From NCBI GenBank assembly GCA_965220965.1, contig OZ244852.1:2779472-2843471 (forward strand): DNA of 64,000 bases, read 5' to 3'. This document shows, one piece after another, positions 1,755-48,782 of the stretch. The notes under the pieces were generated by a model, which saw only the letters and a program-made list of their open reading frames with translations, searched no databases and was not told where the DNA came from. Both the position numbers and the translations under genes were made by a program. The DNA is from Candidatus Marinacidobacterium sp. GTDB taxonomy: Bacteria > Acidobacteriota > Vicinamibacteria > Marinacidobacterales > Marinacidobacteraceae. Within the stretch, counting starts at the first letter, position 1. Every line of letters starts with the position of its first letter.

Positions 1755-3608
1755 TCAGAGCGTTCGCAGGAACGCGATGAGGGCGGGGAGATCGCCCTCG
1801 GAGACCACGATCCCGTGTCCCGGATGGACCCGGAGCACTTCCTCCAGCGAGTGCGCGGAGCCGTCGTGGAGAAGGCGGCGGCGCGTGCGGACCCCGCGCA
1901 GCGACGGCGGATTGAAGTGCGCGTTTCCGCGCTCGTCGGTCAGGCCCACATCGTGAGCGCCGGGGGAGGTGTAGAGCGGCTCGGTGTGGCAGCGGTTGCA
2001 GGTGTAGGCCGAGAAGGCGTCCCGCCCGCGCGCCACCAGCGCGGCGTCGGTTGAGGCCTCTCCCATCTCGGGAAGTTCGAGCGTCAGCAGGTAGGCCGTC
2101 AGGTCGTCCACCTCGCGGGGGGCGAGATCCCGGCCGCGCAGCGTCGTCTCGACCGACTTGACGACCTGGTGCTCGAGTTTCCGGATCTTCCCGTTCCAGG
2201 CCCACGGGCCGGTGTCGCGGACGCCCAGCAGCGAGAGAACCCGCTTCGGAGCGCCGTAGGCCCCGTCCCCCAGCGTGTCGGAAAGCCGGTGGTTCGTGTG
2301 CCCGTTCGTGTGGCAACTGTTGCAGCTCATCCAGCCGCGGAGCGACAGGGTCGCGTCGTGGAACAGCAGTTCGCCCCGGTCCGCCGCGGTCAGCGCGGCG
2401 GGTGGGCCGAGCGGCATCCGGGCGGTCTCGGTGCGGTCGGTCAGCGAGACCACCGACACCGAGTCGGACCAGGTGTTCGCCACGAACAGCTCGTCGCCGC
2501 TGAGCGCGAGCGCCGAGGGACCGGCCCCGACCCGGACCTGACTGACCTGTCGGGCCGCCGGAGCGCCGAAGGCCAGCCGCCCGACGCCCGAGAGCGCCAC
2601 CACGAGCTGTCCGTCCCCGGCCGCCAGGATGGCCGCCGGATCGCCCGAGGGGGAGGAGACCGTCCCCAGGTCCAGGACCCGGGCGCGCCGGTGCATCCGG
2701 GGATCGCCGGCGATCAGGTCGTCCACCGGAAACAGCCGGACGCTGTTCGTCAGGAACACTCCCCAGCGAATGTCATCCGAACTGGTGTGCATCCCGGAGT
2801 GGAGCTGCTGATGGACGATGGCGACCTGCTCCCGGTCCGGAGTGAGCGCGAGTCCCCGCAGGTTGTGGCTGGGCAGTTCGAACGAGCGCTCGAGCGCGCC
2901 GGTCGCCGCATCGAGCAGGGCGAGTCCCCCGCCGAAGGCGTCCGCCACCAGCAGATGCTCCGGGTCGAGGAAGAGCAGCTCCCCGGCCTCGAACGGCAAC
3001 CGTCCGGTCCAGGCGGGCTCGAGCGTCACGCCCGCCCCGATCCCGAGCTCGTAGCCCCGCACCTCGCGCGGCCACAGGCACGAAACGGCGAGCGCCTGCT
3101 CCTCGATGACCGCGCGCCGGGGGTTGCGGCAGGTCGGGAACGCAGCGTCCACCGCAAGGACCGGTCGGCTCCGCGCCGCCGGGAAGAGATCCCCGCCCGG
3201 CGGGCCGGGCCGGACGTCGTCCTCCACCCGGAGGACCAGCAGCCGGCCCCCCCGGTGGTCCACCGCCAGCAGCCGGGGCGGGTCGCCGGCGGCGCCCGGC
3301 AGCACGGCCAGCGATGTGATGTCGCCGCCCACCGGCGTCTCCCCGAGGAGCGTGCGGTCCGAGGCCCGGATCACGCTCACCGCGCCGGTCCGGTGTCCCA
3401 CGACGACGGCGTCTCCGCCCCCGGGGAATGAAGCGACCGCGATGGCCTGCGGCCTCCGTCCGCCGCCGGCCCCCGTCCCGAAGTCTCCGTCTCGCGCTCC
3501 GGCCCGCTCTTCGGGATTCCCCGGCGCGAACGCGCTCAGCGCGAGCGCCGCAACCGCCGCCAGAGTCCGGCGAAGCGTCCGACCGGGGGGCGGGAACGAA
3601 CCGCGCAT
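1755..3608 (-). CDS. Secreted beta-propeller protein fused to a di-heme cytochrome c peroxidase-like domain
   Basis: The start was trimmed to the internal Met (MRGSF...) that begins a signal peptide (AAVAALALSAFA). The C-terminal domain has two CxxCH motifs (CNSCH, CNRCH) and the CCP/MauG-like PPSLRGV...LHDGS motif. The N-terminal part looks like a YVTN/lactonase-type propeller. Confidence 0.8.
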   Translation of the reverse strand: MRGSFPPPGRTLRRTLAAVAALALSAFAPGNPEERAGARDGDFGTGAGGGRRPQAIAVASFPGGGDAVVVGHRTGAVSVIRASDRTLLGETPVGGDITSLAVLPGAAGDPPRLLAVDHRGGRLLVLRVEDDVRPGPPGGDLFPAARSRPVLAVDAAFPTCRNPRRAVIEEQALAVSCLWPREVRGYELGIGAGVTLEPAWTGRLPFEAGELLFLDPEHLLVADAFGGGLALLDAATGALERSFELPSHNLRGLALTPDREQVAIVHQQLHSGMHTSSDDIRWGVFLTNSVRLFPVDDLIAGDPRMHRRARVLDLGTVSSPSGDPAAILAAGDGQLVVALSGVGRLAFGAPAARQVSQVRVGAGPSALALSGDELFVANTWSDSVSVVSLTDRTETARMPLGPPAALTAADRGELLFHDATLSLRGWMSCNSCHTNGHTNHRLSDTLGDGAYGAPKRVLSLLGVRDTGPWAWNGKIRKLEHQVVKSVETTLRGRDLAPREVDDLTAYLLTLELPEMGEASTDAALVARGRDAFSAYTCNRCHTEPLYTSPGAHDVGLTDERGNAHFNPPSLRGVRTRRRLLHDGSAHSLEEVLRVHPGHGIVVSEGDLPALIAFLRTL

Positions 3609-20954: not shown

Positions 20955-21326
20955 GGGGGCGTACTGGGTTCGACGAAGGTACAGGAAGCAGCGACTGCAT
21001 GCCGGGGGTCCACCTTCCGCAAACGGTGGAACAAACACAAACGCCAACGATCATCAGCTGGCTCTGGCTGCTTAAGCCACGTCCTTCCCGACCGTGCCTG
21101 CCGGGACGGGAAAGGACGACGACCAGGCGGGCTCGACTGACGGCTCTCCCGAGCCGTCCGTGACACCCAGGGATAGCCGCCGCCCCCCGATTCGCCGGGT
21201 TGATGCGGGGTGGTGGCGAACGTGGCCGGGCGCCTCGGCGCGCCGGCCGAATACAACCCGGCTAAGCATGTAGAGGTCTCTGTGGAAGGCTTTCGGACGC
21301 GGGTTCGATTCCCGCCGCCTCCACCA
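20955..21326 (+). ncRNA. ssrA: tmRNA (transfer-messenger RNA)
   Basis: The 5' GGGGGCGUACUGGGUUCGACG pairs with the 3' ...GGACGCGGGUUCGAUUCCCGCCGCCUCCACCA, giving a tRNA-Ala-like acceptor and T-arm with an encoded CCA. The internal tag reading frame GCC AAC GAT CAT CAG CTG GCT CTG GCT GCT TAA gives ANDHQLALAA*. Confidence 0.92.
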
Positions 21327-22905: not shown

Positions 22906-24105
22906 ATGAAGAACAACCGCAGAAGCTTCTTCGGGTCCCTGGCGGGGCTCGGAGCGGCGGCGGCGGCGCCTCGCTCGCTGTTCGCCCAGTCCGGCGGAGG
23001 GGGCAGCGAACCCGTCCCCGTCGTCCACCCCGACCTGAACACGCTCAAGCCGCGGCGGGTCAACGAAGACGGGGTCAACAAGGAGTTCCACATCATCTGC
23101 GAGCCGGTCAAGCGCGAATTCGTGCCCGGCCGCACGATCGACTGCTGGGGCTTCAACGGGACCTGCCCCGGTCCGACGATCGAGGTCACCCAGGGAGACC
23201 GGGTGCGGCTCGTCGTCGAAAACCGGCTGCCGGAAGCCTTCTCGATGCACTGGCACGGCTTCGAGATCCCGATCGACATGGACGGCGTGCCCGGAGTCAC
23301 CCAGGACCCGATCCCGCCGGGCGGGACGTTCGTCTACGAGTTCGACCTCCATCAGCACGGCACGTTCTTCTACCACTCCCACTTCCCGATGCAGGAGCTG
23401 ATGGGCATGATCGGCCTGTTCATCATGCATCCCAAGGAGGCCTACCGGCCGACCGTGGACCGGGACTACGGGATGATCCTCCAGACGTGGGACCTCAAGC
23501 CGAACGCCACGATCCCGGCCACCCTCGGGATGAACTTCAACTGGCTCACGATCAACGGGCGGGCCGGACCGCATACGACCCCGCTGCTCGCCAAGCTGGG
23601 TGAGCGCGTGCGGTTGCGGATGGTCAACCTCAGCTCGATGCACCATCCGATCCACCTCCACGGCTTCACCTTCCAGACGGTGGGCACCGAGGGTGGACGG
23701 ATGCCGGAGTCCACCTGGGAACCGGGCAACACCGTCCTCGTGGGCGTCGCGCAGGCGCGGGACGTCGAGTTCAAGGCGGAGTACCCCGGCGACTGGATGA
23801 TCCACTGCCACCTGCCGCACCACATGATGAACCAGATGGTCGCGCTCGTGGGGCCGCGTCACATGGCCCACATGGAGCACGGTGGCGGCCAGATGGATGC
23901 CGCTGCGGCCATGGAGGTGCCCGGGTTCCGTCAGGACATGTTCATGCCCATGGACGAAGCGGTTGCGAAGCCCGAGACCCGCGGCATGCGGCCGACCTGG
24001 TCGGCGGGCATCATGGGCATGATGAGCGTGGTTCGGGTTCTGGACGAGGCGACCTTCGACTCGATCCAGGCCGAGATCGCCGCCGGCGGCGGAGGAGACG
24101 CGTGA
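22906..24105 (+). CDS. Multicopper oxidase (CopA/CueO-like), Tat-secreted
   Basis: It has a Tat motif (NRRSFFGSLAGLGAAAAAP). Copper ligand motifs HWHG, HSH, HPIHLHG and HCHLPHHMMNQM are present, and there is a Met-rich C-terminal segment (MAHMEHGGGQMD...MFMPMD). An RBS gggaga precedes the start. Confidence 0.9.
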   Translation: MKNNRRSFFGSLAGLGAAAAAPRSLFAQSGGGGSEPVPVVHPDLNTLKPRRVNEDGVNKEFHIICEPVKREFVPGRTIDCWGFNGTCPGPTIEVTQGDRVRLVVENRLPEAFSMHWHGFEIPIDMDGVPGVTQDPIPPGGTFVYEFDLHQHGTFFYHSHFPMQELMGMIGLFIMHPKEAYRPTVDRDYGMILQTWDLKPNATIPATLGMNFNWLTINGRAGPHTTPLLAKLGERVRLRMVNLSSMHHPIHLHGFTFQTVGTEGGRMPESTWEPGNTVLVGVAQARDVEFKAEYPGDWMIHCHLPHHMMNQMVALVGPRHMAHMEHGGGQMDAAAAMEVPGFRQDMFMPMDEAVAKPETRGMRPTWSAGIMGMMSVVRVLDEATFDSIQAEIAAGGGGDA

Positions 24106-25421
24106 TGGTTCGCCTTCCAATGACCCTGGGAGCCGCCGCGCTGGCGGTCGGGCTGGCCGCGCCCGCGGCGCTCGCCCAGGAAATGACCCTCGAAGACCTC
24201 CAGCGGATCGCGCTGGAGCGCAACCCGACCCTCGTCCAGGTCGATGGGCGGCTGCGCGCCGCGATGGCCGACTCGGACCAGGCCGGACTCTGGCCCAACG
24301 TCCACGTCGCCTACGCAACGGAGACGGTGAACGGCCACGAGTCCCACGGCGTCTTCTTCCGGCAGACGCTTCCCATCAGCGGCATCATCGGAGCTTCCCG
24401 CAGGGTGCACGACCGCGACGCCGATCTCGCCCGGGCCCTCGTCCAGGAGCAGCAGATGAAGGTGGCGACTTCGGTCCGGCTGCTCTATCGCGAGGCGCTC
24501 ATGGCCGAGCACCACATTGCGCTCCAGGAAGAAGTCGTCGAGCATCTCGAGGAAGTCCTGGTGACGATCAAGCAGCTCATGAACGTCGGGCTCGAGGACC
24601 CGACCGATGTGCTCGAGACCGAGATCAAGATCCAGCATGCGCGCCTCGACCTCAGCGAGGAGCGCCTCGAGCAGCGGCACATCTGGACCGAGCTGGCGCA
24701 GATGGTGGGCGACCCCTCGCTCACGATGCAGCCGCTGGCGGGGGACGCGCTCGAGCTGCCGCCCGAGCTCGATTACGACACGGAGCTCGACCGGATGCTG
24801 ACGAACAGTCCGGAACTCGAGAAGGTGCGGATGGACATCGCGCGTGGCGAGGCCGCCGTCGGGTTCGAGCGCACCGAGACGCGGCCCGACCTCGGAGTCA
24901 CGCTCGGTCGCCGCTACAACCGCGGACTCATCGGGTTCGGTCACGAAACCGAGGTTCTTCCGTCCTGGGAGCTGGCGCTGGAGCTTGATCTTTCCGCACC
25001 GATCTGGAACCGGAACCAGCACGGGATCCGGGCCGCCGAAGAAGATGTTCGCATGGCGCGGGCGGATCTCGACCGCGAAATCCTCCACCTTCGGTCCAAG
25101 TTCGCGGACGAGTTCCACGAGTACCAGATCGAACGGGATGAGGCCCGGGTCTACCGCGAGGAGATCCTGCCCCGGGCCGAGCAGGTCCACGAACTGGCGC
25201 TCGGTCGGTACATGGATTTCGGCGAGGACTACGGCGAAGTGCTCGAGGCGAAGGGGCACATCCTCGAGGTGCGCGGCGAGATCCTCCATTCGCTGTCCGA
25301 GGCCTGGCATCACACCGTGATGATTGAGGGGATGCTGCTCCACGGCGGCCTCCTGGTTCCGGAGTTCGAGATCCTCGAGAACACCGGGATGGGCAGCGCC
25401 GACACGCCGTACACCAGGTAG
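24102..25421 (+). CDS. TolC-like outer-membrane efflux protein (OMF family)
   Basis: Its start overlaps the multicopper oxidase stop (ATGA). It has a signal peptide and the two coiled-coil/beta-barrel repeats typical of CusC/TolC. Confidence 0.82.
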   Translation: MMVRLPMTLGAAALAVGLAAPAALAQEMTLEDLQRIALERNPTLVQVDGRLRAAMADSDQAGLWPNVHVAYATETVNGHESHGVFFRQTLPISGIIGASRRVHDRDADLARALVQEQQMKVATSVRLLYREALMAEHHIALQEEVVEHLEEVLVTIKQLMNVGLEDPTDVLETEIKIQHARLDLSEERLEQRHIWTELAQMVGDPSLTMQPLAGDALELPPELDYDTELDRMLTNSPELEKVRMDIARGEAAVGFERTETRPDLGVTLGRRYNRGLIGFGHETEVLPSWELALELDLSAPIWNRNQHGIRAAEEDVRMARADLDREILHLRSKFADEFHEYQIERDEARVYREEILPRAEQVHELALGRYMDFGEDYGEVLEAKGHILEVRGEILHSLSEAWHHTVMIEGMLLHGGLLVPEFEILENTGMGSADTPYTR

Positions 25422-25548
25422 TAGCCCGACTGTCGGGGGCGCGGGCTCGCTCGCCCGCGCTCCCCCGTTACCTTCTCAATCCGGGGTGCGGGGCCGAAAC
25501 CTTCGGCCCCCGGGCCGGCTGGCGTTTGCCACGCCCCCGCGCTGATCC

Positions 25549-25737
25549 CTTAACAGTCTGTTGATGAAGTCCCGTGCAGCGCCGAGAGCGGTGAGGCGCC
25601 CGGCCGGCAAGGCGCGTGAGCGAGGAATATCGGCAATATTCCGAGCGAAACGGAACGATGAGCGCCCCACAGGGGCGCGGTTCGGCCGGGATGGATCGCC
25701 GCTCGAACGCCGCGTGACTTTGTCAACAGGCTGTTAG
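25549..25737 (-). repeat. ~190 bp MITE-like element, copy 1 (inverted relative to copy 2)
   Basis: It is ~90% identical to the reverse complement of 48593..48782. Its termini form an imperfect 22-bp inverted repeat (CTTAACAGTCTGTTGATGAAGTC ... GACTTTGTCAACAGGCTGTTAG). It has internal hairpins GGAATATCGGCAATATTCC and GCGCCCCACAGGGGCGC. Confidence 0.6.
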
Positions 25738-25789
25738 CATGCGGCAAGCCGCGTCCGACGCGGCTCACCAGCGAAGAAGGAGGTGGCGT

Positions 25790-28109
25790 ATGCGCCGTTT
25801 CTTCGGGATGGTCTTTCGGACGGCGTTTGTCGTCCTGATGCCGGCGACGGTCCTTGCGGGGGGGCGTTGCGGCCCAGGCGCCTGGCGTTTCGGGCTCGGT
25901 GGTCGACCAGCAGAGCCTCGCGCTGCCCGGCGTCCGGATCGAGCTTCACACCGAAGACGGGGCCCGGGTCGAGGTCGCCATCACCCGCGGTGACGGCTCG
26001 TTCGCCATCGACGTCGCCCCCGGGACCTATTCGCTGACGGCGCACCTCGATGGCTTCGAGCCGGTCGAGCGCGCCGTGACCGTCACGTCGGAAGGGGTCG
26101 TCGTCGACCTGCTCATGGCGATCCGTCCGTTCGAGCAGACGCTCCCCGTGACCGCCGCGCTCCCGGAGATGGCGACGGAGCAGGTCGTCCCTTCGCGTCA
26201 GGTCGAGCAGCGGGTCGCCCAGGACCTCGCGCTCTCGCTCCGGGAGCAGGCCGGGGTGACGGCCCTGCGGCGAGGCCAGGTGAACCTCGACCCTTCGGTG
26301 CGCGGCCTCTACGCCGAACAGATCGGCGTCTTCGTGGACGGCACGCGCACCTTTGCGGCGGGACCGGCGCGGATGGACTCCGAACTGAGCCATGTCAGCC
26401 CCCACGCGCTCCAGTCGATGCGGGTCGTTCGCGGACCGTTCGCGCTGACCTGGGGCGCCGGAACGCTCAGCGCCATCCGCGTCGAGACCTTCAAGCCCGA
26501 CTTTCGCGCGGACGGGTTCCGCTTCGGCGGGCGGGCCGGCTTCAACTACGGGAGCAACGGGGCCACCAAGGACGGCTACGGCAGCTTCTGGGGCAGCAGT
26601 GAGCGGTTCCGGTTCACCCTCCAGCACAACACCCGCGCCGGCGACGACTACACCGACGGCAACGGAGAGGCGGTGCCCGGCGGCTACGAGTCGTTCGACA
26701 CCCAGTGGAGCGTCGGAGGCCACCTGACCGAAGACACCCTCCTTGAGTACAGCGGCGGCCACCAGCAGCAGAACGACCTCGAGTATCCGGGCCGGATCCT
26801 CGACGCCACCTTCTTCACCACGAATTCCCATGCGGTGGAGCTGACGCACGCTCCGGACGAGGGCCTCGTCCGCGAAGTTGTGGCGCAGGCCTACCGGAAC
26901 GCGAAAGACCACCGGATGAACAACGACGACAAGCCGACGGCGATGGACATGCCGGGGCGCAGGCCTCCCTTCGCCCTCGACGTGGACCTTCCCGCCGAGG
27001 CGACCACCACCGGCGGCCGGTTCCACGTCGCCATGGGCCGGGGCGCCCTCCGCTCCCGGATCGGCGGCGACATCTACCGGTTGGATCAGACGGCGACCCG
27101 GACGATCTCCCGGCGCAGCAACGACATGGTCCTGTTCAGCGACCGGGTCTGGCCTGACGCCCGGGTGAGCAACGCCGGCGCCTACGCGCAGCTCGTGCGT
27201 CGGTTCGCCTCGGCGACGCTCGGCGGGACCGTGCGCCTCGACCATGAGCGCGCCGATGTTGGCGAGGTCTCTCCGTACTTCCGGGACAACGCCAGCCCCG
27301 ACCTGTCACAGCGCAACACGAACCTGAGCGCCGCCGCCAGCCTGAGCTGGAACGTGCGGCCCGGCGTGGTCGTGAACCTCGGCGCCGGCCGCGCCGTGCG
27401 CAACCCGTCGGCGCTCGAGCGCTACTCCGACCGCTTCCCCGCAGTGAAGTTCCAGACCGCCGCCGAGTTCATGGGGTCTCCGGAGCTCACGCCCGAGAAG
27501 AGCCGGGAGCTCAACGCCGGCGCCGTCATCGTGTACCGCGACCTGGTGGTCGAGGCCGACGTGTTTCACCGGGTCATCGACGACTACATCACCGTGGCGC
27601 CCGATCCGACGCTGACGAAGCGGCTCCCGCTCAGCCCGCCGGTGGTCTTCCGCTACGTGCAAGGGGGGCAGGCGCGCTACATCGGGGGCGACCTGCGCGT
27701 CCAGATCTTCGTGAACTCCTGGCTGACCGCCCACAACACCGTCTCGTATGTCCAGGGAGACGACACCCGTTTCGATGAACCCCTGTTCGGCCTTCCCGGC
27801 CTCGAAAACCGGTTCGGGCTGCGGGCCGATGCGCCAGGCCGGAACGTCTGGGCCGAGTTGGTCGTTGCGTCGCAGGCGGAGCAGGACCGGGTCGCGGCCC
27901 AGCGGTTCGAGGTTTCCACCAAGGGATGGACCACGATCGATCTGAACGCCGGCTTCGCCCTCCGGGATGGGATGGAGATCCGGGCGGGCGTCCAGAACCT
28001 GACGAACGCGTTCTACGCCAACCACCTCAACTCGTTCAACCCGTTCACGAGGCTGCGCATCGCCGAGGTGGGACGCAGCGTTTACGCCGGCGTGACGGTC
28101 GGTTTCTGA
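25790..28109 (+). CDS. TonB-dependent receptor with N-terminal carboxypeptidase-regulatory-like domain; reading frame interrupted at a G7 tract (25858..25864)
   Basis: A strong RBS aaggagg sits 8 nt before the ATG at 25790. The signal peptide (MRRFFGMVFRTAFVVLMPATVLAGG) is in frame A. The rest of the protein (AAQAPGVSGSVVDQ...TBDR barrel ending ...AGVTVGF) is in frame B, as ORF 25854..28109. Deleting one G from the homopolymer joins the two frames seamlessly. Confidence 0.75.
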
Positions 28110-28245
28110 ACGGGTTGCGGCCCGCCCCGCGCCCTCGGGGAGAGCCCTCCCCCCTTGATTCGCGGGGGGGAGACTCCTACCCTTGCGCGCAGGAAGCGGC
28201 GGCGACGCGCGCTTCGCGTCGCCCGCCGCAGGAGGAGGAGCGCTG

Positions 28246-29568
28246 ATGTTCAGGCGAAACCACGGAATCGCCCTTGCCCTGCTCCTCCTCGCGGAGCCGG
28301 CGCTCGCGCAGGAATCGGGGGGTCCCCTCGCCAGCGTCGCCGGGCTGGACACGATGTTCGTCCTCTTCTCGGCGTTCCTCGTGTTCCTCATGCAGGCGGG
28401 GTTCGGGATGCTCGAGGCGGGGTTCATCCGCGCCAAGAACACCTGCAACATCCTCACGAAGAACTTCCTCGACTACTGCATGGCGTCGCTCGGGTTCTTC
28501 GTGTTCGGCTACGCCATCATGTTCTCGGATGGGAACCCCTTCTTCGGGACGAGCGGTTTCCTGCTGGTTGGCGCGGAATCGGGGGCCGATGTTCCGCTGT
28601 GGGCCTTCTGGCTCTTCCAGGCGGCGTTCTGCGGCGCGGCCGCGACGATCGTGGCCGGAGGCATGGCGGAGCGGATGCGGTTCCCCGCCTACCTCGCCTA
28701 CTCGTTCGTCATCTCGTCGTTCGTCTACCCGGTCGTCGGCCACTGGACCTGGGGGGGCGGCTGGCTCGCCCAGCTCGGTTTCTTCGACTTCGCCGGCTCC
28801 ACGGTGGTGCATCTGACGGGAGGGGCCACCGCGCTCGTGGGCGCCTGGATGCTCGGTCCCCGGCTGGGCCGCTACAACGCCGACGGCTCCCTGAACGCGA
28901 TCCCCGGACACTCGGTGCCGCTCGCCTCGCTCGGGGTCTTCATCCTCTGGTTCGGGTGGTTCGGGTTCAACCCGGGTTCGGCGCTCTCGATGGGCGACGG
29001 AGAGCTCGTCTCGCTGATCGCGATCAACACGAACCTGGCCGCCGCCGCGGCGGCGGTGACGACCACGTTCATCTCGTGGACGCTCTACCACAAGCCCGAT
29101 CTCTTCTTCACGATGAACGGGGCGCTCGCCGGACTCGTCGCGATCACCGCCCCCTGCGCGGTCGTGAGCCCGGCGGCGGCGGTCTGGATCGGCATCGCCG
29201 CCGGGTTCGTGGTGGTCGCCGGCGAGAAACTGCTGAAGATCATCCGGGTGGACGATCCCTGCGGAGCATTCCCGGTCCACGGCCTCTGCGGCATCTGGGG
29301 AACGCTCGCGGTGGGGCTGTGGGGACGCGAGGGGCTGGGGCTCGGCCAGGAGGGACTGTTCTACGGCGGTGGTTTCGAACAGGTCGGGATCCAGGCCCTC
29401 GGGGCGATGGCGTCCGGGCTGTTCGTCATGCTGTCCATGGGTCTGGTGTTCCTCACGATCAAGTCGGTCATCGGGCTCCGCGTTTCCCGTTCCGAGGAGA
29501 TTTCGGGCCTCGACGCCCACGAACACGGCATGGAGTCCTACCGGGGCTTCCAGATCCTGGGGTCGTGA
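28246..29568 (+). CDS. amtB: Ammonium transporter
   Basis: An RBS ggaggaggag precedes the start. It has a signal peptide followed by the 11-TM Amt signature (…FGYAIMF…GAVAERM-like, …HGLCGIWGTLAVGL…). Confidence 0.9.
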   Translation: MFRRNHGIALALLLLAEPALAQESGGPLASVAGLDTMFVLFSAFLVFLMQAGFGMLEAGFIRAKNTCNILTKNFLDYCMASLGFFVFGYAIMFSDGNPFFGTSGFLLVGAESGADVPLWAFWLFQAAFCGAAATIVAGGMAERMRFPAYLAYSFVISSFVYPVVGHWTWGGGWLAQLGFFDFAGSTVVHLTGGATALVGAWMLGPRLGRYNADGSLNAIPGHSVPLASLGVFILWFGWFGFNPGSALSMGDGELVSLIAINTNLAAAAAAVTTTFISWTLYHKPDLFFTMNGALAGLVAITAPCAVVSPAAAVWIGIAAGFVVVAGEKLLKIIRVDDPCGAFPVHGLCGIWGTLAVGLWGREGLGLGQEGLFYGGGFEQVGIQALGAMASGLFVMLSMGLVFLTIKSVIGLRVSRSEEISGLDAHEHGMESYRGFQILGS

Positions 29569-36904: not shown

Positions 36905-36989
36905 GCCGGAGTGGCGGAACTGGTAGACGCACGGGACTCAAAATCCCGCGATCCTTGCGATCATGAGGGTTCGAACCCCTCCTTCGGCA
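36905..36989 (+). tRNA. tRNA-Leu (anticodon CAA)
   Basis: It has the acceptor pair GCCGGAG/CTTCGGC, the D-arm GGAACTGGTAG, the anticodon loop CTCAAAA, a long variable arm and the T-arm GGGTTCGAACCCC. CCA is encoded at 36990..36992. Confidence 0.9.
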
Positions 36990-38206: not shown

Positions 38207-38280
38207 TAGCGGGGGGCGGACTTGAACCGCCGACCTAAGGGTTATGAGTCCTTCGCTCTCACCATCTGAGCTACCCCGCC
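38207..38280 (-). tRNA. tRNA-Met (anticodon CAT), elongator-type
   Basis: The reverse complement reads GGCGGGGTAGCTCAGATGGTGAGAGCGAAGGACTCATAACCCTTAGGTCGGCGGTTCAAGTCCGCCCCCCGCT. The D-, anticodon- and T-arms are canonical. The 1-72 pair appears to be G·U, which is unusual and may indicate a ±1 boundary error. Confidence 0.75.
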
Positions 38281-42516: not shown

Positions 42517-42834
42517 GTGTGGCAAGCTAGGGAATCGGCGGGCGGCTTTCGCCCGAGCCAGACAATGGAACCGTTGCCCGAAGTAGCCCCGATGACGAGT
42601 GCGGAAAAGGCCCGCCGCGAGGCGGAAGTCGCGGCCTTCTGGGACGCCGTCGCTCGGCGGCTGCGACGCCGACCTCCTCCGGACCCGCTGCTCGAGGGCT
42701 TCCGTTCCGCGTTCGACCTGAGTCCGCGCTGGCGCCGGACGTGGCTCTCGGAAAGCGAGGGAGCCTGGGCGGACTGGGTTGGGCTTGGCTGCGACCTGCG
42801 GCGGGCGATCCGGAAGGCGCCTCCTCGGTCCTAA
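42517..42834 (+). CDS. Hypothetical small protein lying between the two 118-bp direct repeats
   Basis: The ORF runs exactly from repeat A to repeat B. There are no recognisable motifs. Its status as coding is uncertain. Confidence 0.3.
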   Translation: MWQARESAGGFRPSQTMEPLPEVAPMTSAEKARREAEVAAFWDAVARRLRRRPPPDPLLEGFRSAFDLSPRWRRTWLSESEGAWADWVGLGCDLRRAIRKAPPRS

Positions 42835-42948
42835 GGCCTGAACGGCGAGGGATCCACGCTCGGCGGGGTCCCGTCGGCGAGTTCCTGGATGACCAGTCCG
42901 GTCCCGAGCGACTGGGTGAAGCCGAGCATGCCGTGTCCGGCGGCGACG
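42831..42948 (+). repeat. 118-bp direct-repeat copy B (native 3' end of the FAD-oxidoreductase gene)
   Basis: See copy A. Confidence 0.85.
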
Positions 42949-44072
42949 AGCAGCCCCTGCCGCCCCCGGGGGCGTCCGATCCTCGGAAGGCTGTCGGGCG
43001 TCAGCGGCCGGAAGCCGGCCCACGGCTCTTCCTCGTCCAGCGGGATGTCGGCGTTCAGGACCTGGCGCGCTCCCTCGATCACCGCGCGGTAGCGCACCGG
43101 GTTGAGCGCCGGATCGAACCCGGCGAGCTCGAGCGTCCCGGCGAACCGCACCCGGTCCAGGAACGGCGTGATGATGACCTTCTTCTCGGCGACCGTCGCC
43201 GGGACGGCGGGGCTGCCGGGAAAGGCGCGCACCGTGGCGCTGTAGCCCTTGGCGGGCTGGATCGGTAGCCGCACGCCGGCGGTCCGGGCGATGGCCGGCG
43301 AGTGCGCGCCGAGCGCGAGCACGGTCTCGTCGGCGGTTCGCTCGCTCGAGGCGCTGCTCTCATCCTCGACCGCGGCCCCGAGCACCCGGTCGCCGTCCCG
43401 GAGCAGCCGGGTCACGTTGAGTCCGGTCTCGATCCGGACCCCGTTGCGCTTCAGGGCCGCGGCGAGCGACTCCGCGAACCCGAGGCTGTAGCCGTGGGCG
43501 TCGGAGCCCAGGAAGAGCGCCCCGCGCACCGCGCCCGAGAACACGGGTTCGCGCTCCCGGACTTCGTCCCCGGTAAGCGTCTCGATGGGGAAGCCCCGCC
43601 GCTCCAGCCACGCCGCCTGTTCTCCCGCTCCGGCGAAGCCGGCGTCGGTGACGAAGACCCACCAGCCGCCCTGGCGCTCGAAAACGAACTCGAGATCGCC
43701 CTCGTCGAGCAGCTCTCCGAAGAGGCGCAGGCTCAGGTGGGAGAGCGCGGCGATGGCCTCGAATCCGGCCTCGGACCGCGCCCGGGTCGCGGCCCGCGCG
43801 AAACCGAGGAGCCATGCGGCGAGCGCGGGGTCGGCCCGCCAGCGGATATGGAACGGGCTGTCCTCGCGGAGCATCCAGCGGAGCGCCTTCCAGACGACGC
43901 CGGGGGCGGGCAGCGGGTGCGAATGCGCCGGACAGAGGAGCCCCGCCGTTCCCCGGGTCGCGCCGTGTCCGGGAAGTCCGCGGTCGATGACGCGGACGTC
44001 CCAGCCCGCCCTGCGCAGGAACCAGGCGCAGGAGAGCCCGATCGCCCCCGCCCCCAGGACGAGGGCGGTGCG
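42831..44072 (-). CDS. FAD-dependent oxidoreductase (D-amino-acid dehydrogenase/DadA-like); the start codon is unresolved
   Basis: The open frame continues upstream of the ORF-track ATG (43874) through a Rossmann motif, TALVLGAGAIGLSCAWFLRRAGWDVRVIDR. No ATG, GTG or TTG precedes the motif before the dinB-like stop at 44074. The end coordinate is therefore approximate. Confidence 0.65.
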   Translation of the reverse strand, partial: RTALVLGAGAIGLSCAWFLRRAGWDVRVIDRGLPGHGATRGTAGLLCPAHSHPLPAPGVVWKALRWMLREDSPFHIRWRADPALAAWLLGFARAATRARSEAGFEAIAALSHLSLRLFGELLDEGDLEFVFERQGGWWVFVTDAGFAGAGEQAAWLERRGFPIETLTGDEVREREPVFSGAVRGALFLGSDAHGYSLGFAESLAAALKRNGVRIETGLNVTRLLRDGDRVLGAAVEDESSASSERTADETVLALGAHSPAIARTAGVRLPIQPAKGYSATVRAFPGSPAVPATVAEKKVIITPFLDRVRFAGTLELAGFDPALNPVRYRAVIEGARQVLNADIPLDEEEPWAGFRPLTPDSLPRIGRPRGRQGLLVAAGHGMLGFTQSLGTGLVIQELADGTPPSVDPSPFRP

Positions 44073-44073
44073 C

Positions 44074-44574
44074 TTAGGGCGCGTTTTCGTCGGCCGAGGG
44101 CCCGTAGGCGCCCGGCACCGGGATGCCGAGGAGCCGGTAGGAGACGCTGAGCTGTCCCCGGTGGTGGATGATGTGGCTCACGATGAACCGCCGGAGCGCG
44201 AGGTCGCGGGGATGCTGCTCGAGCACCTTCCCCGACAGGAGCATGCGCCAGGTCTTGCGCATGTGCTCGTCGGTCTTGCCGTCGAGGCTCCGAAGAAACC
44301 GCGCGGTGTTCGCATCGTGCGCCTCGATCAGTTCGGCGCGGGTCCGCCAGTCGGGGAGCTTGTAGTCCGACGTGGCGAAGTCGAAGTCATCGGCGTCCAG
44401 AAGCGTCGTCGCCCAGTTGGGCATGTCCACCACGTGGGTGGCGAGCTTGGCGAGGGTCATCGACTTCTCGTGCGGCTTCCAGTCGGCATGGGCGTCATCG
44501 AAACGCTCGAGGAACCTCCGGGTGCAGGTGGCCTCAAGAATGAACTCGGCGATGAAACTCTCGGCGATCGTCAC
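44074..44574 (-). CDS. DinB/YfiT-like (DinB_2) metal-dependent hydrolase-fold protein
   Basis: 166 aa. It has a conserved His triad (…HEKSMTLAKLATHVVD…HIIHHRGQL). Confidence 0.78.
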   Translation of the reverse strand: MTIAESFIAEFILEATCTRRFLERFDDAHADWKPHEKSMTLAKLATHVVDMPNWATTLLDADDFDFATSDYKLPDWRTRAELIEAHDANTARFLRSLDGKTDEHMRKTWRMLLSGKVLEQHPRDLALRRFIVSHIIHHRGQLSVSYRLLGIPVPGAYGPSADENAP

Positions 44575-47177: not shown

Positions 47178-48608
47178 ATGTCCGGTACCGTTAGGGCTCC
47201 GATGACGCGCGGACAGATCGCCGAATGGGTGGCCGCAGGAGAGTCAGAGACCCAGGAGTTCAAGCGCACAACCGGCCAGCGGCGAGCGGCGGCCAAGGCT
47301 GTCTGCGGGATGCTGAACCATCGCGGCGGGCGGGTTCTGTTCGGCGTGACTCCTGCGGGCGAAGTCGCCGGGCAGCGAACTGGAAGGGACACGCAGGAGG
47401 ACATTTCCCAGGAGCTGCAGCAGATCGACCCGCCGGTCTTCCCCGACATCGACCAGGTCGACGTCGGGGACTCGCTGGTCGTGATCGTCGTGACCGTTCC
47501 CACCGGGACGAATCGTCCGTACAGCTATCGGGGCCAGGCGTACCGGCGCGTGGGCAGGACGACGCTGTCCCTCTCCGGGGACGAGTACAACCGGATGTTG
47601 CTGGAGCGGCTCCACGGTGACTCGCGCTGGGAGACCGAGGAGGCCGCCGGGTGGGACATCGCCGATCTCGATCACGATCAGATCGCCGCAACGGCCGAAG
47701 AGGCGGTGCGGCGCGGGCGCTTGGAAGAACCCGGTACGCGGGCGGCGGAGCCGCTGCTGCGCGGCCTCGGCCTGCTGCGTGGGCGAACGGTTCTGCGGGC
47801 GGCGGTCGCGCTCTTCGGCCGCCGACAACGGCTCGCCACGGAGTACCCGCAGTGTCTCCTGAGGGTCGCCAGGTTTCGGGGGACGACTCGGACGGCGTTC
47901 CTCGACAACCGACAGGTCCACGGCAACGCCTTCGATCTGCTCCACGCCGCGCAGCGCTTCCTGGTGGAGAGCTTGCCGATCGCTGGCCGTGTTGTCCCGC
48001 ACCTCTTCGAGCGGGTCGATGATCCGCTGTATCCGCCGGAGGCCCTGCGGGAGGCCGTGGCGAATGCGATCTGTCATCGCGACTATGCGGCGGGAGGCGG
48101 ATCGATCGGGATCGGCATCTACGACGACCGCCTCGAAGTTACGTCAACCGGCGGACTTCCCTTCGGACTGACGCCGGAGATGCTGTTCGAGCCGCACGAG
48201 TCCCGGCCCTGGAATCCCCTGATCGCCGGCGTCTTCTTCCGTCGGGGGATCATCGAAAACTGGGGTCGCGGAACGCTCCGGATGGCGGAGCTCACCGAGA
48301 GCGCCGGACTTCCTCGCCCGGAGATCGAGGACCAGGCGGGCGCCGTTACGGTGCGCTTCCGACCAGGCCGCTACATCGCCCCCCAGCGGATCGGACGCGA
48401 TCTGACCGAACGACAACGGGCGATCCTGACGATCCTCGGCGAGGCGCCGGAGGGGGTCGCCGTGCGGGACCTCCGGGCTCGTCTGGTGAATGGCTCCACG
48501 GCGCGGCAGGTCGGCAAGGACCTCCAGACACTCCGGGCCCTCGGACTGGCTCTCCCCGCCGGACGGGGACGGGGCGCGCGCTGGCGCCGAGCTCAAGCAG
48601 CCCGTTGA
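47178..48608 (+). CDS. AlbA_2 (divergent-AAA) + HATPase_c_4 + C-terminal wHTH protein (RecG-C-terminal-like putative ATPase/transcriptional regulator; Schlafen-like)
   Basis: The N-terminus (…ESETQEFKR…LNHRGGRVLFGV…) matches AlbA_2. The middle region (…ALREAVANAICHRDY…) matches HATPase_c_4. The C-terminal …LTERQRAILTILGEAPEGVAVRDL… looks like a wHTH. It is full-length relative to the truncated paralogue at 21389. Confidence 0.8.
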   Translation: MSGTVRAPMTRGQIAEWVAAGESETQEFKRTTGQRRAAAKAVCGMLNHRGGRVLFGVTPAGEVAGQRTGRDTQEDISQELQQIDPPVFPDIDQVDVGDSLVVIVVTVPTGTNRPYSYRGQAYRRVGRTTLSLSGDEYNRMLLERLHGDSRWETEEAAGWDIADLDHDQIAATAEEAVRRGRLEEPGTRAAEPLLRGLGLLRGRTVLRAAVALFGRRQRLATEYPQCLLRVARFRGTTRTAFLDNRQVHGNAFDLLHAAQRFLVESLPIAGRVVPHLFERVDDPLYPPEALREAVANAICHRDYAAGGGSIGIGIYDDRLEVTSTGGLPFGLTPEMLFEPHESRPWNPLIAGVFFRRGIIENWGRGTLRMAELTESAGLPRPEIEDQAGAVTVRFRPGRYIAPQRIGRDLTERQRAILTILGEAPEGVAVRDLRARLVNGSTARQVGKDLQTLRALGLALPAGRGRGARWRRAQAAR

Positions 48609-48782
48609 CAAAGTCCCGCGGCGTTCGAGCGGCGATGCATCCCGCCCGAACCACGCCCCTTCGGGGCGCTCATCGTTGCGTTTCGCTCGGAATATTCCCG
48701 ATATTCCTCGCTCACGCGCCTTGTCGGCCGGGCGCCTCACCGCTCTCGGCGCTGCACGCGACCTTATCAACGGACTGCTAGG
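48593..48782 (+). repeat. ~190 bp MITE-like element, copy 2; its left end overlaps the last codons of the AlbA_2 gene
   Basis: See copy 1. It begins …AGCAGCCCGTTGACAAAGTC and ends GACCTTATCAACGGACTGCTAGG. Confidence 0.6.

Follow-up and report, generated by a model that had tools for sequence, protein, structure and literature searches.

A probable recent one-base slip in a poly-G tract separates the signal peptide from the body of an OprC-like TonB-dependent receptor in Candidatus Marinacidobacterium sp.

The gene of an OprC-like TonB-dependent receptor in Candidatus Marinacidobacterium sp. is broken at a run of seven G residues, and the best reading of this break, with a probability of about 0.65, is a recent and real slippage mutation from G6 to G7 that inactivated the receptor. 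A lesion of this kind, in which a mononucleotide run slips by one base, is commonplace, and here it concerns a metagenome-assembled genome. All coordinates below refer to the window, that is, the whole 64,000-nucleotide stretch of DNA that was analyzed.

The receptor gene lies on the plus strand and is preceded by a Shine-Dalgarno sequence (AAGGAGG, 25777-25783) placed 6 bases 5' of the start codon, ATG 25790; direct reading of the sequence confirms both, as given in the initial annotation. From this start, frame A encodes the n- and h-regions of a signal peptide (MRRFFGMVFRTAFVVLMPATVLA…, 25790-25857), which align with the signal peptides of orthologues. The frame reads MRRFFGMVFRTAFVVLMPATVLAGG and, past the break at the G7 homopolymer (25858-25864), continues as nonsense (…VLAGGRCGPGAWRF…) up to a premature TGA (25991-25993), the product being 67 aa of junk. 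Frame B, open from 25839 to the stop codon at 28107-28109, holds a receptor body of 751 codons, located at 25865-28109 (stop codon included) on the basis of Pfam matches and orthologues. The N-terminal Sec signal peptide is out of frame with the mature receptor as sequenced and comes into frame only after one G is removed. This removal yields a continuous ORF of 772 aa, reading …VLMPATVLAGGVAAQAPGVSGSVVDQ… and with the junction stretch …VLAGGVAAQAPGV…, that aligns end to end with intact orthologues of 761-776 aa. The split of signal peptide and mature domain between the two frames and the read-through at G6 had both been proposed from the sequence beforehand, and both are borne out.

Tract lengths of G6 or G9 would fuse frame A to the receptor frame, and at G6 the tract encodes Gly-Gly just 5' of the likely cleavage site. 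The repaired N-terminus is colinear with each orthologue tested. In the alignment its signal peptide is as long as theirs, and the likely cleavage site, VAA↓QAPG, falls at the corresponding position, opposite ARA↓Q, AEA↓Q and VLA↓Q of the relatives. A proline at position +1 is unfavorable for signal peptidase, so VAA↓Q is a better fit than AQA↓P; the latter had been proposed in the initial annotation. The location of the tract at the exact junction between signal peptide and mature receptor is beyond chance. A G7 run is by itself unremarkable, since the window (70.4% GC) contains ten G or C runs of this length (five G7 and five C7, none longer) against 42.6 ± 8.2 expected from dinucleotide shuffles, a depletion of about four-fold.

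The identity of the product as a TonB-dependent receptor, assigned previously from the sequence, is upheld by Pfam. In the repaired 772-aa ORF a CarboxypepD_reg domain covers residues 33-102 (approximately 25887-26096), a Plug domain residues 129-227 (PF07715, E = 3e-12; approximately 26175-26471) and a TonB beta-barrel residues 285-737 (PF00593, E = 2e-27; approximately 26643-28001). The last two, which make up the plug and 22-strand barrel of a TonB-dependent receptor, exceed the gathering score. The C-terminus (…GVTVGF) ends in Phe, the aromatic end residue of outer-membrane barrels. The deposited gene call (P0001), on record for two contigs of 2.88 Mb and 32 kb, is a 736-aa product without signal peptide that starts inside the first domain, at GTG 25899 (MVDQQ…); the annotation needs either correction or a label that marks the gene as a frameshifted pseudogene. 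Its nearest relatives are 62-68% identical to it across 96-99% of the length, measure 761-776 aa and carry the signal peptide in frame in all cases; their genomes belong to the Vicinamibacterales and Thermoanaerobaculia (Acidobacteriota). The orthologues examined (P0002-P0008 and P0011) each consist of one ORF, 761-787 aa long, that includes a signal peptide. Protein-guided scans recovered relatives at no more than 67% identity from one-genome-per-species contigs and at no more than 50% from JGI metagenomes.

Among solved structures the best relative is OprC of P. aeruginosa (PDB 6z8y/6fok), matched with E = 3e-33 over plug and barrel. The copper site of OprC is CxxxM-HxM (C143, M147, H323, M325), of which the Cys has been reported to be essential for Cu(II) binding (PMC8610252). 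In the alignment, the plug Met (…GPARMD…) and the barrel-wall HxM (…KDHRMNN…) match this site, while the Cys is replaced by Gly in the receptor and in the close orthologues retrieved (G-P-A-R-M, H-R-M). Resemblance to the OprC/NosA copper transporters thus consists of the plug and barrel match, the Met and HxM residues and the copper-type neighbors found here. In contrast to those transporters (PMC8610252), the receptor has GxxxM-HxM, an additional N-terminal CarboxypepD_reg domain, and a score of 212.9 bits with its best NCBIfam model (TIGR01778, 'TonB-dependent copper receptor'), far under the cut-off of 472.45. Because of these three differences a copper substrate is unproven; the gene is best described as an OprC-like TonB-dependent receptor with a putatively copper-related substrate. 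The receptor and its close acidobacterial orthologues share both the GxxxM-HxM site and the extra CarboxypepD_reg domain, and they may constitute a separate subfamily that differs in metal specificity.

The receptor is the last member of a copper-type cluster (22906-28109, plus strand), preceded by a two-domain-sized multicopper oxidase of 399 aa (22906-24105) and a TolC/OEP-family outer-membrane gene (24102-25421), and is followed 3' by amtB, glnK and glnA. In a synteny check the relatives of the receptor were found neither beside amtB-glnK-glnA nor beside copper genes, and gene context therefore places no constraint on function. Speculatively, with a multicopper oxidase and a TolC-like protein encoded next door, losing an OprC-like importer could be an adaptation to copper excess. 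A further G7 run (28164-28170) lies past the receptor stop at 28109, in the 136 bases that separate this stop from the amtB ATG at 28246; the run is unchanged in the second assembly considered below and could belong to the leader of amtB-glnK-glnA.

Whether the seventh G exists in the DNA was assessed by comparison with a second assembly, a 32-kb ENA contig (ERZ26695579 ctg112522_4.45x_l, labelled 4.45x) that overlaps the window from position 24568. Over 13,542 bp, a stretch that includes 45 homopolymers of at least 5 bases, a single substitution (25384) and not one indel separates the two sequences, which have the same G7 tract. All of the nine Pfam-matched gene calls in this stretch look complete. 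In addition, a codon-usage Viterbi map of coding frames was built for the whole 64-kb window, in which every same-strand change of frame falls at the stop codon of an upstream gene; the receptor is the only frameshifted gene found in the window. Unbroken coding frames contain 145 runs of G or C (seven of 7 bases, at 3247, 10031, 28751, 31182, 33034, 45175 and 60814, 19 of 6 and 119 of 5), and since these remain in frame and no other frameshift is present, the assembly is not prone to homopolymer errors. The G7 is therefore probably real in the DNA and common to the populations behind the two assemblies, its length being that of consensus sequences. Independence of the assemblies is assumed from the single SNP, the very different contig sizes and the low-coverage label, and the two could share a systematic, platform-specific error.

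The competing interpretation, in which the true genome carries G6, the gene is intact and the extra G was introduced by long-read consensus or polishing, is unlikely on these data. Indels in homopolymers are the commonest error of long-read consensus, and contig names of the form ctgN_cov-x_l suggest that long-read metagenome assemblies are involved; the second contig is labelled just 4.45x, and the receptor body is perfectly intact, as an assembly error would leave it. However, a random error would need to strike one run twice to produce the same G7 in two assemblies that are a SNP apart and show no indel across 13.5 kb. A systematic error would be expected also at the other seven coding G7/C7 runs, yet the 26 further G/C runs of 6-7 bases and the 119 of 5 stay in frame and no second frameshift occurs in 64 kb. 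An indel artefact had been put forward at first as one of two causes of the split frames; it has become the less likely for the recurrence of G7 in the second assembly and for the 145 runs in frame. A real and recent frameshift mutation, which the initial annotation had named solely as an outcome that would refute its proposals, is now the most likely cause.

The condition of the receptor body bears on the age of the lesion. At the 220 alignment columns that are invariant in 39 homologues the body differs at five, within the range of 0-10 seen in intact proteins. The remaining 2.2 kb of the gene thus shows no decay, which argues for a recent lesion and not an old pseudogene, and the undecayed body fits a recent mutation, an artefact and an ON/OFF switch equally. 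A real slippage mutation would have arisen in an ancestral GCG GGG GGC (Ala-Gly-Gly) towards the C-terminal end of the signal peptide, where replication slippage would have lengthened the tract by one G, from G6 to G7. Translation from ATG 25790 would now run through 67 nonsense codons and stop at 25993, and the receptor body would be left without any start that gives a signal peptide. In consequence no exportable receptor would be made and the gene would be functionally OFF. Reversion by slippage could occur, at the low rate usual for a run of 7 bases, and the tract would as such not be an evolved switch.

A different account of the same tract is that of a contingency locus, in which slipped-strand mispairing reversibly sets the receptor ON (G6 or G9) or OFF (G7 or G8), as for hmbR and hpuA of Neisseria. 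Such loci classically have a poly-G tract near the 5' end of the coding sequence of a surface-exposed TonB-dependent receptor (PMC3786947), and the undecayed body is compatible with continued selection. In the criteria used for phase variation, a G/C tract of at least 7 nominates a candidate, while efficient switching has been shown for at least 8 (PMC6321876). The receptor tract reaches the lower cut-off and is exactly at it, but is shorter than the lengths with demonstrated switching (PMC6321876). In the hmbR/hpuAB system of Neisseria meningitidis, to which the present gene is alike in that the length of an in-ORF G homopolymer of a TonB-dependent receptor system decides protein production, the tracts are mostly of 9-13 G, vary between isolates and have been demonstrated to switch, the common lengths of the hmbR and hpuA poly-G tracts being 9-13 (PMC3786947). 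Here, in contrast, the tract has 7 G, is no longer than the other long runs of the window, is identical in both assemblies and is absent from orthologues. Also, such tracts are over-represented in phase-variable genomes and vary between strains (PMC6321876), whereas in the window runs of this length are depleted as described above and none is longer.

Comparative evidence points in the same direction. Across ten related loci, the signal-peptide region contains no G/C run of at least 5, a result that goes against the genuine ON/OFF switching suggested in the initial annotation, as do the lack of tract enrichment and the shared G7 length. G7 is the length in both available assemblies (n = 2), an OFF length in each case, and the records contain no other. 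JGI metagenomes were scanned for exact matches to the tract at G5-G10 together with both flanks, and none was found; the product of the G6 (ON) length is absent from approximately 15 billion public proteins. Reversible switching at this locus is, accordingly, improbable, and it is equally doubtful that a working contingency switch of a metal-uptake receptor has been caught in the OFF state in both populations of a free-living or symbiotic member of the Acidobacteriota. Heterogeneity of tract length in the population is possible, the comparison comprising two assemblies. Were such a switch true, it would operate with a tract of merely 6-7 G in a 70% GC genome, and, to our knowledge, repeat-mediated phase variation of a surface receptor would be seen for the first time outside the classic host-adapted pathogens. 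The frameshift would gain interest only if reads showed a mixture of G6 and G7.

Full-length receptor could also be made from the G7 sequence by recoding, either through +1 slippage of tRNA-Gly on GGG GGG or through slippage of RNA polymerase. If the tRNA moved by +1 from one GGG to the GGG that overlaps it, exactly the G6 product would result, and low-level spontaneous slippage does occur on homopolymers. Against such a mechanism, no stop or obviously slow codon follows the slip site, no conserved stimulator is present, and the frameshift is not conserved, the orthologues all being single ORFs. The features of a prfB-type +1 frameshift are likewise missing, as the next stop of frame A does not come until 25991 and the shift is unconserved. 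Transcriptional slippage sites known in bacteria are long A/T runs, and a leak of a percent or so is the most that could be expected here. Recoding as the source of full-length receptor is thus very improbable, although a small spontaneous leak is possible. In this respect the probably recently mutated gene resembles ordinary homopolymer frameshift pseudogenes, which lose their function through the gain or loss of one base in a mononucleotide run while the rest of the gene stays intact, and from which low-level slippage could leak some product. In endosymbionts, pseudogenes of this type are partly rescued by polymerase infidelity; that rescue is documented in long poly(A) tracts, and nothing here shows rescue.

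Between the TolC-like gene and the receptor lies a MITE-like element of 186 bp (25551-25736) with 24-nt terminal inverted repeats (TAACAGTCTGTTGATGAAGTCCCG / CGTGACTTTGTCAACAGGCTGTTA), which ends 54 bases 5' of the receptor start. A second copy, 92% identical and in opposite orientation, is found at 48598-48780. The RNA of the element would form a long hairpin (-107 kcal/mol, z = -6) and matches no Rfam family; the element could insulate the receptor from upstream transcription. Rfam searches 5' of the receptor returned no riboswitch or sRNA, the sole match being weak and sub-threshold (CC3552, E = 0.05), and a consensus scan for promoters and terminators over 25300-26000 found none. A tmRNA gene (20955-21326, 150 bits) is located directly 5' of a gene with a HATPase_c_4 domain and of the copper cluster, and two tRNA genes occur in the window (36905-36989 and 38207-38280). 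As no sequence of at least 12 bases from the tmRNA 3' end recurs downstream, there is no sign that the cluster is an ssrA-integrated island.

A separate lead, which may be more interesting than the receptor frameshift, comes from a FAD-dependent oxidoreductase gene of the DAO family (PF01266) on the minus strand (44076 to 42831, within the region 42831-44110), 3' of a DinB gene. Its N-terminus is a conserved Rossmann region (RTALVLGAGAIG…) in which no ATG, GTG or TTG occurs in frame before codon 67; the gene as deposited is truncated to 347 aa. The oxidoreductase follows the same DinB gene in five related genomes (L030, 2254-2520; L033, 1068-1210; L034, 1092-1210; L031, 1256-1510; L032, 1194-1510). 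In L034, L031 and L032 an ATG is embedded within the Tyr-Gly codons of DinB (TAT GG). The embedded ATG of L034 is in frame with the oxidoreductase, and that of L032 is followed, after a spacer of 274 nt, by a separate ATG that belongs to the oxidoreductase. In L031, from a 2.9-Mb relative, the embedded ATG is in the +1 frame and the Rossmann region in the +2 frame (1256-1330), one base off; either the short junction carries an indel or the gene starts in yet another way. In the window and in L030 and L033 the Tyr codon of DinB is TAC, and the homologous codon of the oxidoreductase frame is ACG.

Two other interpretations of this gene were considered and rejected. It is not a second decayed gene, the arrangement being conserved under purifying selection in other lineages, nor is it a +1 frameshift fusion with DinB at CCC_TAA_G, as offsets and shift sites are not conserved. 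Between lineages, the N-terminal 76 codons of the oxidoreductase show 26-32 synonymous-only differences against 5-14 amino-acid changes, and because the former outnumber the latter this region must be translated. The pattern suggests ACG initiation, another non-canonical start or coupled re-initiation, conserved in three lineages.
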